A stretch of DNA of 64,000 nt from Candidatus Bathyarchaeota archaeon (lineage in GTDB: Archaea; Thermoproteota; Bathyarchaeia; Bathyarchaeales; SOJC01). The notes below the pieces were generated by a model. The model was given only the letters and a program-made list of their open reading frames with translations, ran no database searches and was not told the origin of the DNA. The stretch lies in the NCBI GenBank assembly GCA_020354575.1, contig CP070649.1, positions 830,504 to 894,503 on the forward strand, given 5' to 3'. Of this stretch, positions 9,305 to 39,329 are shown in pieces. Each line of letters opens with the position of its first letter. The first letter of the stretch is position 1. The position numbers and the translations under genes were made by a program.

Positions 9305-10725
9305 ATCAAATCACTTAACAATTTTAAGAGCCCTTGACTTGCAAGGTATCTATAAGTTCTTCTTTTCAACCCATTTGGAGAGAACAGTCCTTTAAATCGT
9401 CTACCTATCGAACCATAAAAACTTCTGTAACAATTGTATAATTCTTCCTGTACTTCTTTTCTTGATAAGGTTTCAGTCGGCATGATCGCATGCGTCATAT
9501 CATAATTAGCCCAGTTTGTATCTTCTATCCATCCATTCTGCTTAGCTGTTTGATATAGCTCTGTTCCAGGAAAGGGTGTTAGAATCATGAAAATCGCCAA
9601 ATCCGGATCGATGTGGTTCACAAACTCTCTGAGTCCTGATATTGACTCATGGGAATCTCTCCTGCCGCCTAAGATAAGAGTGGCTTGAGCGAAAATGTCA
9701 TTCTCTTTTAATAGTTTCATTCCCTGTTTTGCATCTTTAGGATTAATTTCCTTATGGAACGATTTTAATGTGGCTGCATTTCCGCTTTCGATTCCCACAA
9801 GTATCCATCGGTTTCCAGCTGCTCTAATTTTAGGTAGAATTTTCTGATGATTGATAATGTCATCACATCGAGCCTGCATAAACCACATTATATCGTCAGC
9901 AATCTTGTGTTGGATAATTTCATCACATAAGTCGCTGGCGTGTTTTCCAAGACCAAAGTTATCATCGGTTAACCAAAAAAATCTACAACCAAACTCGTTG
10001 TAGCAATGCTTAATTTCATCTGCAATGCGTTTTGGCGATTTAATTCTCCAAGTGCCTTCCCAATGCTTCCATTGAGTACAAAAGGTGCATTTATGAGGGC
10101 ATCCTCTGGACCCTTCGATGAGGGCATACTGTTTTCCACCAGCCATCATAGTAAAATGATACTTACCCATGTGTTTCTCAACAAAGTGATAGCCAGGAAA
10201 TGGCAAATCGTCTAAATCCTCGATTAAAGACCGCGGTGGATTATGTATGACCTTCTTTTTATGTCTAAACGAGATTCCTTCAATTCTTGAAAAAAGAGGT
10301 TTTTTGTTCCTTAATTCGCTAATTAATTCTACGAGAGTCTGTTCTCCTTCTCCACGAATGATGATATCGATCTCTGGAAAAGCCTTAAGGCTTTCTTCTG
10401 CCATGACTGAAAAATGCTGTCCTCCGATAACTGCTAGGATAGAAGGATTCACTCGTTTTGCAGTTGCTATTGTACGAATAACTGTATATGCGTTGCATGT
10501 TGCGAGAGCGCTTGGAGCCACTACATCAGGAGCGTACGATTCGATTTTCCTTTCTAATTCTTTCCATCCCAATCTTTCAGCTTGGCAGTCTAATACTTTT
10601 ATATCGATATTCTCACAATGGCGCTCAAGATAAGCTGCCAATTCTAGTATTCCAAGAGGTGGAGGGAGATATTCCCCCATAACAAACCAATGTTCTTTTG
10701 GTGGCTCCAAAAAGAGTACTTTCAA
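9301..10725 (-). CDS. B12-binding domain radical SAM protein
   Basis: CPHKCTFCTQ cluster plus an N-terminal cobalamin-binding-like domain. Same architecture as 81..1592. Confidence 0.8.
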   Translation of the reverse strand: MKVLFLEPPKEHWFVMGEYLPPPLGILELAAYLERHCENIDIKVLDCQAERLGWKELERKIESYAPDVVAPSALATCNAYTVIRTIATAKRVNPSILAVIGGQHFSVMAEESLKAFPEIDIIIRGEGEQTLVELISELRNKKPLFSRIEGISFRHKKKVIHNPPRSLIEDLDDLPFPGYHFVEKHMGKYHFTMMAGGKQYALIEGSRGCPHKCTFCTQWKHWEGTWRIKSPKRIADEIKHCYNEFGCRFFWLTDDNFGLGKHASDLCDEIIQHKIADDIMWFMQARCDDIINHQKILPKIRAAGNRWILVGIESGNAATLKSFHKEINPKDAKQGMKLLKENDIFAQATLILGGRRDSHESISGLREFVNHIDPDLAIFMILTPFPGTELYQTAKQNGWIEDTNWANYDMTHAIMPTETLSRKEVQEELYNCYRSFYGSIGRRFKGLFSPNGLKRRTYRYLASQGLLKLLSDLI

Positions 10726-35221: not shown

Positions 35222-35467
35222 TCACCTTGGTGGTGGTGAGATTATTACTACATTATCTCCTCGGACGATTAGGGTGTCTAATTTTTTAATGTTTTCTGAA
35301 TCCGTGCTATCTTCCGTCTCTTCCAGTACTAAATTAAGATGCTGATCGAATCCTCTTAGTTTCCCTCTTAGACTTTTTCCGCCTTTTAGCCGAACGAGAA
35401 CTGTCTTTCCTAGACTTTCCTCAAGGATTTGAGTTGTCATTTCGCTCATTTTTGAATGCTCCAACAA
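35222..35467 (-). CDS. Sm-like (LSm) archaeal protein
   Basis: Sm1/Sm2 motifs: VLVRLKGGKSLRGKLRGFDQHLNLVLEE...LIVRGDNVVII. The canonical LSm-L37e pair. Confidence 0.9.
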   Translation of the reverse strand: MLEHSKMSEMTTQILEESLGKTVLVRLKGGKSLRGKLRGFDQHLNLVLEETEDSTDSENIKKLDTLIVRGDNVVIISPPPR

Positions 35468-35661
35468 TGTTCCTGTGTATGCTTTTAATAGGTGAAAGAA
35501 TTAGTCATTTAAATGTATCTATGGTCTTTCCAATGTATCTATAGCCTATTTCCGCTTCCTGAACAGCTTAAGCCCGTCCATATCCGTTACGTACTCAAAC
35601 CCGACTTCCAGCAGCTTTTTTGCTTCTTTCACAGTTGCATGCATGCACATATCTCAAAAGA

Positions 35662-35687
35662 GATTTTTGGGGGGGACATCTCCACTA
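35662..35687 (+). repeat. cassette-boundary repeat copy R1
   Basis: GATTTTTGGGGGGGACATCTCCACTA. Near-identical to the 3' part of R6. Confidence 0.7.
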
Positions 35688-35761
35688 TGATGCTAGTCCA
35701 AACTAGACTGGTTACCACCAAAAATAAAAGCTGAATTCTCAAAGGAAAAATTGGGATTATT

Positions 35762-36214
35762 ATGGCTGAAATTGTTGTTTCGAAGAGGACCTTTCTAATT
35801 GGGCTAGTCTTAGGAATATTGGCTTCAACCGCTATCTCTGTAACTTTCGTTATATTGGTTTATCCAAGTCTGCTGCCAAAAGGTTGGCACGAAGTGACAT
35901 TCTTCTCTGGGACTTTTCAAGAATATGACTCTGAGACATTAGAAAAGTTCCATATTTCCAGTAATCATTGGAGGTTAAAGTGGAATACTGATTTGCACAA
36001 GAACCCGGAAAATGCTGAGTTCCATGTTTTTGTAATAGAATGGATTAACGTACGCCCGTATTTCCATCAAGCGGCACCAATTACTCCTGAAAGCCGTGTC
36101 GGTTCTTTTTGGATTGATTATGGACTTGAGTATTTTATTGGTCCAGGACAAAAGCAGGTTGAAGTTGCAGGTGCGACAGTGAACTATACTATAATCATTG
36201 AAGCATACTACTGA
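35762..36214 (+). CDS. membrane-anchored extracellular hypothetical protein
   Basis: N-terminal TM helix plus a beta-rich domain of about 110 aa. Confidence 0.5.
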   Translation: MAEIVVSKRTFLIGLVLGILASTAISVTFVILVYPSLLPKGWHEVTFFSGTFQEYDSETLEKFHISSNHWRLKWNTDLHKNPENAEFHVFVIEWINVRPYFHQAAPITPESRVGSFWIDYGLEYFIGPGQKQVEVAGATVNYTIIIEAYY

Positions 36215-36222
36215 ATCTCTCT

Positions 36223-36256
36223 AAAAAAATGGGGAGTGCGCGGGTGATATCTCCAT
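36223..36256 (+). repeat. cassette-boundary repeat copy R2
   Basis: AAAAAAATGGGGAGTGCGCGGGTGATATCTCCAT. Begins 9 nt after the preceding stop codon. Confidence 0.7.
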
Positions 36257-36312
36257 TCAATGTCAGATTCCATATATAGTTGATGTCATCAAAGACAAAG
36301 TAAGGTCAGTAT

Positions 36313-36675
36313 ATGAACTGGAAGACTTTCGGGTATTATCTCTCTTTTGTTGCGGTTGTATGTATGCTTGTATTCACCATCTGGTTTGGTCGCTTTCTTA
36401 GTCAGCCAATTCCTGGAGTTTTTTTCTTCTTTGGTATTGGTGGTGCTCTACTAATCTGGACCAGAAGCCGTTTGCTGCGGATTCTCGGAGAGCTTCTAGT
36501 GGTTGGCTGTTCTGTTCTTTGGTGGTTTACTGCGATCGGTGGATATTTCTTGCCAACCCCGATGTTCTTCTCCAATGTGCAGCAACCCTTGGGTTGGATA
36601 ATGGGGTTCCCCGTGCTCTTGGCGACCCTAGGGGGTGCCCTCACCATAATCAGTAGCATTCGACAGTCTCGTTGA
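36313..36675 (+). CDS. four-TM small membrane protein
   Basis: Hydrophobic helices only. Confidence 0.5.
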   Translation: MNWKTFGYYLSFVAVVCMLVFTIWFGRFLSQPIPGVFFFFGIGGALLIWTRSRLLRILGELLVVGCSVLWWFTAIGGYFLPTPMFFSNVQQPLGWIMGFPVLLATLGGALTIISSIRQSR

Positions 36676-36715
36676 AAAAAAGGAGTGTGCGGGAATAATC
36701 GGGTGATATCTCCAT
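36675..36715 (+). repeat. cassette-boundary repeat copy R3
   Basis: AAAAAAAGGAGTGTGCGGGAATAATCGGGTGATATCTCCAT. Starts at the last base of the preceding stop codon. Confidence 0.7.
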
Positions 36716-36721
36716 CAGTGT

Positions 36722-37078
36722 ATGGCACACACAGCTAGCTATCCCAATTGCATCTTTTTATGTCCAGGCGATTATGTTTTACCAGTAAGGAGAGCTGGGT
36801 TATCTGAAGAAGCGAAGCTTCATTTCACCAAAGTAAAACTTGATAAAGCAAAGAGACACATCAGGTCAGGGTATAGACTTCTTGTAGCTGGAATATTTGT
36901 GACAGCTACTGGACTCTTCTTCAGACTGATAGATGAATTCTTTTTCTTTATTTTTGTGACTCCTACTTTGCTCCCTAATGGCTTCATATTGGGAGGAACG
37001 GGACTTCTGGAGAGTATCTATGGAGTGTACCAGACAGGCAGATTAACCGAACAACTGAAAGCCTTGTCTTCTAGCTAA
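36722..37078 (+). CDS. two-TM small membrane protein
   Basis: 118-aa ORF with a soluble N-terminal part and two TM helices. Confidence 0.45.
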   Translation: MAHTASYPNCIFLCPGDYVLPVRRAGLSEEAKLHFTKVKLDKAKRHIRSGYRLLVAGIFVTATGLFFRLIDEFFFFIFVTPTLLPNGFILGGTGLLESIYGVYQTGRLTEQLKALSSS

Positions 37079-37088
37079 CGTTGCTAGC

Positions 37089-37122
37089 AAAAAAATTGGA
37101 TAATGCCGGAGATATGGCCATG
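37089..37122 (+). repeat. cassette-boundary repeat copy R4 (degenerate)
   Basis: AAAAAAATTGGATAATGCCGGAGATATGGCCATG. Aligns to R3 (GGAATAATCGGGTGATATCTCCATC) with several substitutions. Confidence 0.5.
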
Positions 37123-37242
37123 CTAAGCAGATTCTAAGAAATAAATTAATGCGTGCGTATGCAAAACGGTAATCTTCATAAACATGTACTATAAAATCAC
37201 AAATTTTAAGTTTCATTCTCATTAATTTAACCACGAAGCACA

Positions 37243-37656
37243 TTGCCAAGTATAAAAATTGGCGCATACGAAGCATCAATTATGCTTCTCCTGATGATAA
37301 TTTTGGCAGCTCTTGGTGTTGCTGTTACTGTTGCTTGGTTTTTATTTGCGACAAGAAGTCGTCCTCTTGTGGTTGAAGAACCATTATCGATCACTGAATA
37401 CCCCAGCATAATTCACACTCGCCCCGGGGAAAACAAAACTTTGGACATCACTCTCATGAATTCAGCATACATAAGTTATGAAGTGACACTATTTTTTGCA
37501 CTAAACGAATCAGCCTATCAAGAATCTTACATTACTTTTAGCAATCTAACCTACACTATAAAACCAGGTTCAAACAATTTAACGGCTTGGCTTTTCGTGC
37601 AAAAGAATGCACCCCCTGCTTTCCTTGAGCTAACTGTTGATTTTTACAGACAGTAG
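37243..37656 (+). CDS. membrane-anchored extracellular hypothetical protein
   Basis: N-terminal TM helix plus a beta-rich domain carrying N-x-S/T sequons. Confidence 0.5.
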   Translation: MPSIKIGAYEASIMLLLMIILAALGVAVTVAWFLFATRSRPLVVEEPLSITEYPSIIHTRPGENKTLDITLMNSAYISYEVTLFFALNESAYQESYITFSNLTYTIKPGSNNLTAWLFVQKNAPPAFLELTVDFYRQ

Positions 37657-37711
37657 ACAAACCAAACCCGCTAAAAATAGCCTTAGACCGAAAACAACAA
37701 GACATCCCCTT

Positions 37712-37740
37712 GAAAAAAGAGGAGAAGGCTGGGGATATCA
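37712..37740 (+). repeat. cassette-boundary repeat copy R5 (truncated)
   Basis: GAAAAAAGAGGAGAAGGCTGGGGATATCA. Shares the A-run, the GGRG and GGGGATATC, but lacks TCCA. Confidence 0.45.
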
Positions 37741-37773
37741 TAAACTATTAAGAATTTATGCATACATGCCCCT

Positions 37774-38103
37774 CTACCACCAAGCTCTAAGTATTCCCGC
37801 AACAAACGCAGCGATAAGGCCAAATACTGTTGCTGATGGAATGCTGGCACGTAATCTTTCCACATCTAATTCGGGATAATCAAGTCCAAGGCCTTCAAGC
37901 CGGTGCGGAAGTGTATGAGGGCCATACGCAATAGCGAGTCCTATGGAGAAGAAGACCACAAAGCTAATGGCCACTACACCTAATGTCATACGAAACCGTG
38001 TCATGCGGGATTTTTTCTTCCTCTTTCTTCGGGCATCGCGCATTTGCTCATACGTTGTCGCGACTCCCCCCTTTATTAATGCGGATCTATCGCTATTCAA
38101 CAT
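37774..38103 (-). CDS. two-TM small membrane protein
   Basis: Basic N-terminus followed by two TM helices. The only minus-strand ORF of the cluster. Confidence 0.4.
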   Translation of the reverse strand: MLNSDRSALIKGGVATTYEQMRDARRKRKKKSRMTRFRMTLGVVAISFVVFFSIGLAIAYGPHTLPHRLEGLGLDYPELDVERLRASIPSATVFGLIAAFVAGILRAWW

Positions 38104-38117
38104 TTCCTTGTGTGCAT

Positions 38118-38154
38118 GGAAAAAAAGGGGATTTTTCGGGGGATATCTCCACTA
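38118..38154 (+). repeat. cassette-boundary repeat copy R6
   Basis: GGAAAAAAAGGGGATTTTTCGGGGGATATCTCCACTA. Confidence 0.7.
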
Positions 38155-38301
38155 GCTACTCATGTAAATGTATCTATAATCAAACTTACCGTTTCCCTAA
38201 GCGCTATTTATGTTTGCGAAACAGCGTCTCATCTTCCATGTATACATGCAGAAAACCAAACTATTTGTTGTTCTCATTTGAATTATCAGTGTTGGTAATT
38301 T

Positions 38302-38679
38302 ATGAGAAAAATTATTCACACTGAAAATGCGCCAAAACCATTAGGAGCATACAGCCAAGCAGTGAGAGCTGGTAAATTTTTATTCGTATCTGGTCAATTA
38401 GGCATTGATCCCGAAACGGGAAGATTGACTTCGGATAATATAATAGAACAAACCAGAAGAGTCATGGAGAATATTAAGGCAATACTTAAAGCTGACGACC
38501 ATAGCTTGAATGAGATTGTTCAGGCAAACGTTTACCTATCATCGGCGAAGCATTTCAGCGATTTCAATAATGAATATGAAAGCCATTTTGATAAGGAACC
38601 TCCAGCAAGAGTTACTGTTGGAGTGGAATTGGGGCTAGGAGCTTTGGTGGAAATTTCAGTTATCGCGTATTGTGAATAA
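38302..38679 (+). CDS. ridA: RidA/YjgF family reactive-intermediate deaminase
   Basis: APKPLGAYSQAV...FVSGQLGIDP...PARVTVGV..L......VEI. Confidence 0.88.
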   Translation: MRKIIHTENAPKPLGAYSQAVRAGKFLFVSGQLGIDPETGRLTSDNIIEQTRRVMENIKAILKADDHSLNEIVQANVYLSSAKHFSDFNNEYESHFDKEPPARVTVGVELGLGALVEISVIAYCE

Positions 38680-39146: not shown

Positions 39147-39329
39147 CTATTCTTTTGCCAAACTATATTGGCGACCTCGGGTTTCGATCTGTCCTTTTTC
39201 AAAGAGCTTTCTCAGGGCTTTGAAAATTGTCTTTTCAGGCTTGTCCATTTTCTGAGCGATTTCAGCCAAAGTAAGTGGTTTGGAAGACTCTCTTAGAAGT
39301 TCTAAGATCGGTTTATCGAGTTTACCCAA
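39147..39329 (-). CDS. small winged-helix DNA-binding protein
   Basis: 60 aa. ILELLRESSKPLTLAEIAQKM...ALRKLFEKGQIE. Confidence 0.55.
   Translation of the reverse strand: MGKLDKPILELLRESSKPLTLAEIAQKMDKPEKTIFKALRKLFEKGQIETRGRQYSLAKE

Follow-up and report, generated by a model that had tools for sequence, protein, structure and literature searches.

Organization of the locus

The window analysed here is a stretch of 64,000 nucleotides (nt) from Candidatus Bathyarchaeota archaeon (contig CP070649.1, positions 830,504 to 894,503 of the forward strand). Its region 35400–38400 contains five small open reading frames (ORFs, O1 to O5) of 150, 120, 118, 137 and 109 amino acids (aa), four on the plus strand and one on the minus strand, in a block that lies between the LSm/L37e genes and a RidA-family gene. 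The gaps around these ORFs carry a repeat, designated E, which is the subject of this report. It consists of an A-run, a stretch resembling GGGGAGTTTGC and a 14-nt core, GGGKGATATCTCCA. The ORFs had been recognized in the initial annotation as being of unknown function, and consistent with this, Pfam and PHROG searches returned no family for any of them. Two were near-orphans in the homologue search, and O1 and O4 have been deposited as hypothetical proteins of ‘Candidatus Bathyarchaeota archaeon’. The aminoacyl-tRNA synthetase of the window is 76–82% identical to its counterparts in Bathyarchaeia metagenome-assembled genomes (MAGs). The features of the block and its borders are collected in Table 1.

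Table 1. Coordinates of the repeats, ORFs and integrase remnants of the array
Feature	Coordinates	Strand	Description
X_L	35502..35522	+	TAGTCATTTAAATGTATCTAT, host LSm promoter sequence; left flanking repeat, attL-like; repeat family D4
Integrase C-terminal pseudogene fragment	35549..35650	minus	CMHATVKEAKKLLEVGFEYVTDMDGLKLFRKRK, then stop codon; adjoins E1
E1	35656..35684	+	Degenerate copy AAAAGAGATTTTTGGGGGGGACATCTCCA; HMM E-value 3e-3; the homologous copy in L209 fits the consensus well
t1	35685..35720	+	CTAGT-CCAA-ACTAG hairpin, then ACTGGTT-A-CCA; resembles a decayed tRNA 3′ part; moves with O1 in L209
O1	35762..36214	+	150 aa, N-terminal transmembrane segment; single homologue, 78% identity, L209
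E2	36224..36255	+	Begins 10 nt past the O1 stop codon; HMM E-value 1e-8
O2	36313..36675	+	120 aa, multi-pass membrane protein, near-orphan; identical copy in Logan contig L076
E3	36676..36714	+	Begins immediately past the O2 stop codon; internal 10-nt duplication, CGGGAATAAT followed by CGGGTGATAT
O3	36722..37078	+	118 aa, membrane protein; start codon 7 nt past E3
E4	37090..37122	+	Strongly degenerate, AAAAAAATTGGATAATGCCGGAGATATGGCCA; 74% identity in family D1, HMM-negative; weak assignment
O4	37243..37656	+	137 aa, TTG start (ATG in relatives); homologues 55–81% identity
E5	37713..37768	+	Degenerate copy 37713–37740 plus about 30 nt (37741–37768); both kept past O4 homologues (L210, L214 alignment)
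O5	37774..38103	minus	109 aa, membrane protein, opposite strand
E6	38121..38151	+	Best copy, right end of the inserted block; HMM E-value 6e-11; degenerate homologous junction in L210
X_R	38157..38177	+	TACTCATGTAAATGTATCTAT; right flanking repeat, attR-like; 19/21 identical to X_L
Older, more decayed integrase C-terminal remnant	38204..38260	minus	Ends in YMEDETLFRKHK (EDETLFRKHK), then stop codon; 52 nt past E6

With up to two mismatches allowed, the core matched five times in the 64-kb window against an expectation of 0.55, and none of 100 shuffles reached five matches. Four of the five are copies of E, at 35671, 36242, 36701 and 38138, all on the plus strand; the sequence GATATCTCC is confined in the window to three of these strong copies. 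A hidden Markov model (HMM) of E, trained on 100 metagenome copies independently of the window, detected 38119–38153 (E-value 5.7e-11) and 36223–36257 (1.1e-8), followed by the weaker pair 36691–36715 (9.4e-5) and 35656–35686 (3e-3). The copy at 37713–37739 was degenerate and reached an E-value of only 8.7, and the one at 37090–37122 was not detected by the model. Both degenerate copies were assigned by 74% ungapped identity within repeat family D1, and E5 additionally by its conservation past O4 homologues. Thus, of the six copies claimed at the outset, the four strong ones were confirmed, and two (37090–37122 and 37713–37740) are degenerate. The single orientation ascribed to the copies holds for all six, and the core is, as described, a near-perfect palindrome on reading the sequence. 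Searches with the model and the pattern found E neither in the rest of the 64-kb window nor in approximately 250 kb of related Bathyarchaeia loci.

Two further observations concern the copies themselves. A minus-strand sequence at 10664–10677, GGGGAATATCTCCC, matches the core with two mismatches but has no A-run, and is probably a chance match. The duplication in E3 (36690–36709) sets an AATAAT about 25 nt ahead of the O3 start codon; an A/T-rich insert of 9–12 nt at the same position was seen in approximately 10% of the metagenome copies described below, among the matches listed (L091, L105, L107, L125, L143, L148, L151, L161 and L195).

The block is flanked by direct repeats and is absent from the closest relative

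The outermost E copies had been proposed to bracket the cluster as direct repeats. The true flanking direct repeat was instead found to be the motif AAATGTATCTAT, which had been noted as an extra motif near both ends and was indeed present at 35502–35522, 35522–35542 and 38157–38177. The first and last of these, X_L and X_R, are 21-nt copies that are identical at 19 of 21 positions, and the middle one is a partial second copy. The X_L sequence is conserved in two related loci, L005 and L210.

In L005, the closest relative, homology with the window ended right after X_L and weakly resumed after X_R, and the locus had none of the five ORFs and no E. L005 therefore represents the empty site, and together with the X repeats this identifies the block 35523–38156 as an insertion flanked by attachment site (att)-like repeats. 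The suggestion that the array had been inserted into a housekeeping context was thereby upheld. In another relative (L210–L213), the order of a hyp213-like gene (in the window, the ORF upstream of L37e), LSm and X was the same as in the window. The array that followed was different: an O4 homologue came first past X, then a degenerate E5, four other small ORFs, and an E6/X_R junction that was degenerate and clearly homologous to that of the window. The two arrays therefore have O4, E5 and the E6/X_R junction in common and differ in their other content. Across the syntenic LSm loci, the site was empty in one relative and differently filled in the other, and the five genes were not in a fixed order.

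Individual units were also found away from the LSm site. In L214–L218, an O4 homologue is located between two ABC-transporter operons. It is accompanied there by approximately 75 nt of upstream sequence, the degenerate E5 and the next 30 nt or so; in L214, a search for direct repeats on both sides of the O4 unit gave none. The upstream stretch of about 75 nt is conserved across three contexts and moves with O4, and is likely, from its conservation, to be the gene’s own promoter. The O1 unit recurs in L209, flanked by counterparts of E1-t1 and E2, and the sequence differs to the left of the former and to the right of the latter. These data agree with the early proposal of a recombination hot spot with cassette-like turnover.

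It was also considered whether the block could be an ordinary operon or gene cluster with a common regulatory site in its gaps; such a site might be a promoter, an operator with a palindromic sequence or a terminator working in both directions. Seen from the opposite strand, an A-run is a T-run, and the A-run and G-run that make up the left half of E are the reverse complement of a C-rich tract and T-run that is usual 3′ of integrase genes. The palindromic core, the position of strong copies upstream of plus-strand genes and the frequent ending of ORFs 0–60 nt ahead of the A-run, seen also among the metagenome matches listed, would suit such a site. However, the five genes are not kept in order, L005 having none of them and L210 one plus other ORFs. 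E is also missing elsewhere in the 64 kb and in the related loci, and its link to tRNA fragments and att repeats, described below, is not expected of an operator. We consider a shared regulatory site in an operon very unlikely.

On the far side of X_R, the stretch from X to the aminoacyl-tRNA synthetase gene differs throughout among the window, L005 and L210. A 60-aa winged-helix-like gene on the minus strand (39147–39329) is inverted in the window relative to the adjoining synthetase gene, and is co-directional with it in L001–L005, L008, L012, L016 and L022.

E precedes tRNA 3′ pieces in many metagenome contigs

Metagenome contigs were scanned for exact matches to the pattern AAAAAAN{0,4}GGN{6,24}GGGKGATATCTCCA, which yielded at least 120 loci; the counts for this set, here and below, are among the matches listed. 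Positions lying outside the pattern were conserved, position −1 being C in 105 of 118 copies, with TTTG just ahead of it, so the matches are homologous rather than due to chance. A T-loop motif of the GGTTCAAATCC type was present 5–35 nt past the core in 43 of the 118 copies (36%), compared to a chance level of 0.7% of random 30-nt windows. Past this motif, the sequence continued with the T-stem, the 3′ strand of the acceptor stem and often CCA, which was encoded in 17 of the 43. The pieces derive from different tRNAs, and they begin at the variable loop at a constant distance from E.

ARAGORN found no tRNA at the E copies of 43 loci, with the proviso that in these organisms tRNAs with introns, the tRNA-Gly of L111 among them, escape it. 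The 400 nt upstream of 46 copies contained no 5′ acceptor strand that would match, and on this the idea of a split or intron-containing tRNA failed; the pieces are orphan fragments. At several loci, their origin could be traced to an intact tRNA gene upstream on the same strand, part of which was repeated identically past E: 28 nt of tRNA-Phe in L128 (2.7 kb apart), 23 nt of tRNA-Cys in L116 (5.4 kb apart) and 18 nt of tRNA-Phe in L149 (1.2 kb apart). The layout of tRNA, cargo, E and old tRNA 3′ end is that of a remnant of integration into a tRNA gene, with E at the inner right end. The order in L161 was an E-fragment, a 661-aa gene and a second E-fragment. In the window, the distance of t1 from E1 matches the T-loop position of the metagenome copies, and t1 may accordingly be read as a decayed tRNA 3′ end.

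E and the piece that follows it could alternatively form a small RNA gene or signal, such as a split-tRNA-like 3′ half, a minihelix or a processing mark for RNase P/Z. T-arm, acceptor strand and CCA do stand at fixed spacing past E, T-runs often come after the piece, G-U wobble favours pairing of the plus strand, and the tRNA-Leu-type piece contains CCCCCGC, with which the core GCGGGGG could base-pair. Against this, Rfam gave no match in 8 kb of the window (E-value ≤5) or in 10 related loci totalling 72 kb, and on either strand E folded no better than shuffled sequence (z = −0.2 to −1.7). The upstream search described above produced no partner strand, the acceptor strands vary without covariation in the 5′ part of E, the tRNA pieces are duplicates of an intact tRNA nearby, and many of the following sequences, including those of the window, are not tRNA-like. 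An RNA gene or signal is in our judgement unlikely.

Several details of the pieces were recorded. In L197 (4906–4870), the core GCGGGGG is identical to the 5′ strand of the acceptor stem in the targeted tRNA-Leu(GAG), as seen in L202–L204. Pairing with CCCCCGC in the piece behind it could give an acceptor/T-arm minihelix; other target tRNAs do not fit. The T-loop of the pieces past E reads GCAAATCC in place of TTCAAATCC in L197, L148/L150, L198, L081 and L078. This variant looks element-side, which suggests strand exchange at or after CAAATCC. The core was also compared by eye with a decayed anticodon arm (loop G-K-GAU-A-U); this was rejected, as the stem is weak and E is unchanged across target tRNAs.

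Arrays at other loci are strictly co-oriented

Seventeen loci carried several copies, and in these all 25 of 25 adjacent E pairs were co-oriented. Random insertion is therefore excluded and an oriented, site-specific process is indicated. The units measured 85–4442 nt, and mostly comprised one gene in either orientation. Their cargo was diverse and included beta-propeller and beta-helix surface proteins, methyltransferases, regulators, a TFS-like protein and small membrane proteins; the ORFs ending just ahead of E were likewise diverse. No conserved neighbour emerged when 1146 flanking ORFs were clustered, with no family in more than nine loci. Paired E units 85–175 nt apart that contain no gene were seen in L086 (1828–1933), L099 (2656–2755) and L169 (3095–3282), and are either empty cassettes or collapsed insertions.

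The short length, intergenic position and abundance of the copies, six of which lie within 9.9 kb of L094 amid ordinary-looking genes, and the cargo-free tandem units of L086 and L099 could also be explained by a small selfish repeat, similar to a miniature inverted-repeat transposable element (MITE) or a repetitive extragenic palindrome (REP), spreading into intergenic DNA between ordinary resident genes. Such a repeat would not be expected to be co-oriented in every pair (approximately 2^-23 under random insertion, with a duplicate contig pair discounted). There are also no terminal inverted repeats and no inverted partner, the following pieces match the neighbouring tRNA, integrase remnants adjoin E, and entire units of gene and E recur in differing contexts. 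With inverted ends absent, orientation never mixed and the hairpin fold not significant, the REP/MITE-like comparison of the initial annotation was abandoned; we hold a spreading repeat of this kind to be quite unlikely.

Tyrosine integrase remnants and intact relatives

In approximately 25 of 131 copies, a motif located 50–75 nt past E corresponded to the last codons (FRKRK and stop) of a minus-strand ORF, and these ORFs were C-terminal fragments of a tyrosine integrase. Although no recombinase had been thought visible in the window, two such pseudogene fragments are present there on the minus strand (35549–35650 and 38204–38260), both without catalytic residues. The first is 62% identical to residues 288–316 of the L197 integrase (tblastn, E-value 1e-5).

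Full-length members were found in L111 and L197. The latter is an IMG/VR virus contig in which E separates tail and minor-tail genes from the integrase gene and a repressor-like gene. The integrase gene is directly preceded by E and a tRNA-Leu-like piece, both pointing the same way as the gene, and E therefore looks like one arm of attP; the integrase C-terminus reads GFEYVT..KLFRKRK. Scans of viral contigs for E gave three loci in all, L197 being the sole informative one, and the search of viral contigs for the integrase gave nothing besides L197. On the long contigs L202, L203 and L204, an intact tRNA-Leu(GAG) is followed directly by an integrase gene, an arrangement that reads as the matching left junction. 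E was sought up to 10 kb downstream of the intact integrases in L202–L208 and was not found, so no complete element comprising tRNA, integrase and E has been captured.

The integrase family comprised 994 homologues (E-value ≤1e-10), scoring PF00589 (Phage_integrase) alone and not PF16795. Few members carry a source name, and those that do are mostly from Bathyarchaeia or Bathyarchaeota. Intact integrase genes run in the direction of the tRNA and begin immediately behind it. Many gene calls in the family begin with translated T-arms (for example, GSNPTPRT and GFEPTNP); the longest ORFs span the tRNA-like piece (L197, P0051, P0054 and P0029), and the conserved start, YLLSKK, comes after it. Deposited phages and plasmids contained distant integrases alone, with at most 31% identity, the best archaeal match being Methanocaldococcus fervens tailed virus 1 at 29%.

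Palindromes of alternating G and C were observed near the remnants. GCATGCATGC, GGCGCGCGCGCC, TGCGCGCGCGCA and GCACGCGCGC lie exactly at the cut points of integrase fragments, at 35637–35648 in the window, at approximately 5265 and 5345 in L125, 365 in L184 and 4350 in L132, and GCGCGCGC palindromes lie at the truncation points of the convergent remnants. GC-alternating palindromes are approximately 4-fold enriched at −60 to −21 and +40 to +80 around E, and one was seen upstream of a tRNA-Gly in L083.

In L111 (4360–4485), a tRNA-Gly with a D-loop insert of about 42 nt, partly missed by ARAGORN, is overlapped in antisense by the full-length integrase ORF. This overlap points to a second class of element that uses the tRNA in the opposite orientation. 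Antisense T-arm sequence was also present at the integrase start in L205 and L208.

Proposed origin of the arrays

Taken together, E is probably the end-module of segments that were inserted serially by site-specific, integrase-mediated recombination in Bathyarchaeia, the block in the window included. Directly observed are att-like repeats, remnants of the integrase, sites that are empty or differently filled in relatives, and strict co-orientation. Each segment would be 0.1–5 kb long, usually a single gene without an integrase, and would end in the A-run, GGGGAGTTTGC and GGGKGATATCTCCA. A copy of the target would follow E at fixed spacing; normally this would be the last third of a tRNA gene, from the variable loop through the T-arm and acceptor strand to CCA, and in the window it would be the LSm-promoter sequence X. 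In the free element, E would form one attP arm, and after integration it would remain at the far (attR) junction, so that repeated insertion at one site would stack co-oriented units into an array. By such stacking, the block 35523–38156 with its five small membrane-protein genes would have been built beside the LSm promoter. The small units would be moved by an integrase acting in trans.

In this process, E may be an arm-type site recognized by the integrase or by a helper, it may start or end transcription across the junction, or it may do both. The invariant right half of E, GCGGGKGATATCTCCA, lies at a constant distance from the target copy, whichever tRNA is targeted, and the arm-type site is therefore favoured. 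Alternatively, E could be a junction promoter, or resemble sib in acting only once the ends have been brought together, and its left half may terminate transcripts arriving from the other side.

Several observations weigh against serial integration. No intact integrase is present in the window, and the best X-like matches after the inner copies E2–E5 reached only p ~0.02, leaving these without a convincing target copy. A circular cassette junction was not seen for the small units. The free form (attP) is represented by the single example of L197, which could be an internal junction of tandem proviruses. Intact integrases run with their tRNA, whereas the E-adjacent fragments (approximately 25 of 131 units) are convergent and in every case truncated, with the stop codon at the end closest to the target copy; this may reflect a second, lambda-like layout or an inversion. 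In L094, E units lie between ordinary-looking genes (a TFS-like protein, a methyltransferase and a helix-turn-helix regulator), and E could thus have a general intergenic role in some genomes. Taxonomy was checked for a minority of the contigs with E.

Relationship to known systems

Tyrosine integrases of the SSV and pNOB8 types insert archaeal mobile elements in tandem at tRNA genes, with ‘gene capture’, as described in a review of archaeal recombinases (PMC8371274). The present loci share with these systems a PF00589 tyrosine recombinase, a target in the 3′ part of a tRNA gene, direct att repeats flanking the insert, decayed integrase pseudogenes, elements stacked at one site and an apparent viral attP beside the integrase gene. 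They differ in having an invariant module of about 32 nt at a fixed position next to the target copy, whether that copy is from tRNA-Phe, -Cys, -Leu, another tRNA or not a tRNA at all, and in that most units are single genes without an integrase. The closest integrase among deposited phage and virus genomes, that of the M. fervens virus mentioned above, is also distant in sequence. PF16795 is tied in the same review to the self-splitting (‘suicidal’) integrase class (PMC8371274); unlike SSV-type integrases of that class, the integrase found here did not score this family.

Phage lambda (sib retroregulation) and ICEclc (the outward-facing promoter Pcirc) have elements that are separated from the integrase gene by the att site and become active only once the two ends have been joined. 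E is similar in that the att core lies between it and the integrase: in L197 it precedes the integrase gene, and elsewhere it lies downstream of the convergent integrase remnants. Its A-run and G-run are, as noted, the reverse complement of a terminator-like C-rich tract and T-run. In contrast to those elements, any transcription, processing or promoter activity of E would be hypothetical, and its RNA fold is not significant.

Integrons have been reported for some archaeal MAGs, and the comparison of the array with an integron was therefore examined. A true integron would comprise an IntI-type integrase and promoterless cassettes bounded by attC. The similarities lie in co-oriented repeat–gene–repeat arrays of mostly single, small, unrelated genes, each ending in one recombination-associated repeat, and in content that varies between relatives at a fixed platform site. 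Yet no RYYYAAC...GTTRRRY pair was present on either strand in 35400–38400, and neither IntI nor attI was seen; beside the array there is no integrase ORF, only FRKRK-type integrase fragments. The associated integrase scores general PF00589 only and adjoins tRNA genes, E is conserved as a sequence and not as a hairpin or fold, it is coupled to a target copy that is often a tRNA 3′ end, and at least one cassette, O4, carries its own upstream region. Without attC and IntI the array is not an integron, and a strict integron is extremely improbable. The absence of the attC R″/R′ signature reported in the initial annotation was correct; its integron-like label did not hold in the strict sense.

More tentatively, and with less confidence than in serial integration itself, it is possible that Bathyarchaeia have an integron-like gene-capture platform of independent origin, in which FRKRK-type integrases act in trans and E is their common recognition arm. 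The cassettes would be mostly single genes without an integrase, with E and a short target copy as the recombination site. Integrases supplied by viruses or other elements would insert them serially at the 3′ ends of tRNAs and at other places, the LSm promoter being one, with a single integrase family serving many targets.

A literature search for the exact sequence of the repeat returned nothing, and a keyword check of the archaeal recombinase review and a Bathyarchaeia virus paper gave no mention of an invariant att-adjacent module bounding single-gene arrays. Archaeal tRNA-gene integration and stacked element remnants are already known; an invariant att-adjacent module shared across many tRNAs was not found described in these searches.

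In practical terms, E is a simple sequence marker by which inserted DNA and hot spots of integration can be located in the genomes of Bathyarchaeia, a group with few cultured representatives. Its arrays point to a route of exchange for small membrane and secreted proteins and other genes. If E is the recognition arm of the integrase, target specificity would be switchable simply by swapping the adjoining target copy, and if the small units move on their own, the system would be an analogue of the integron.

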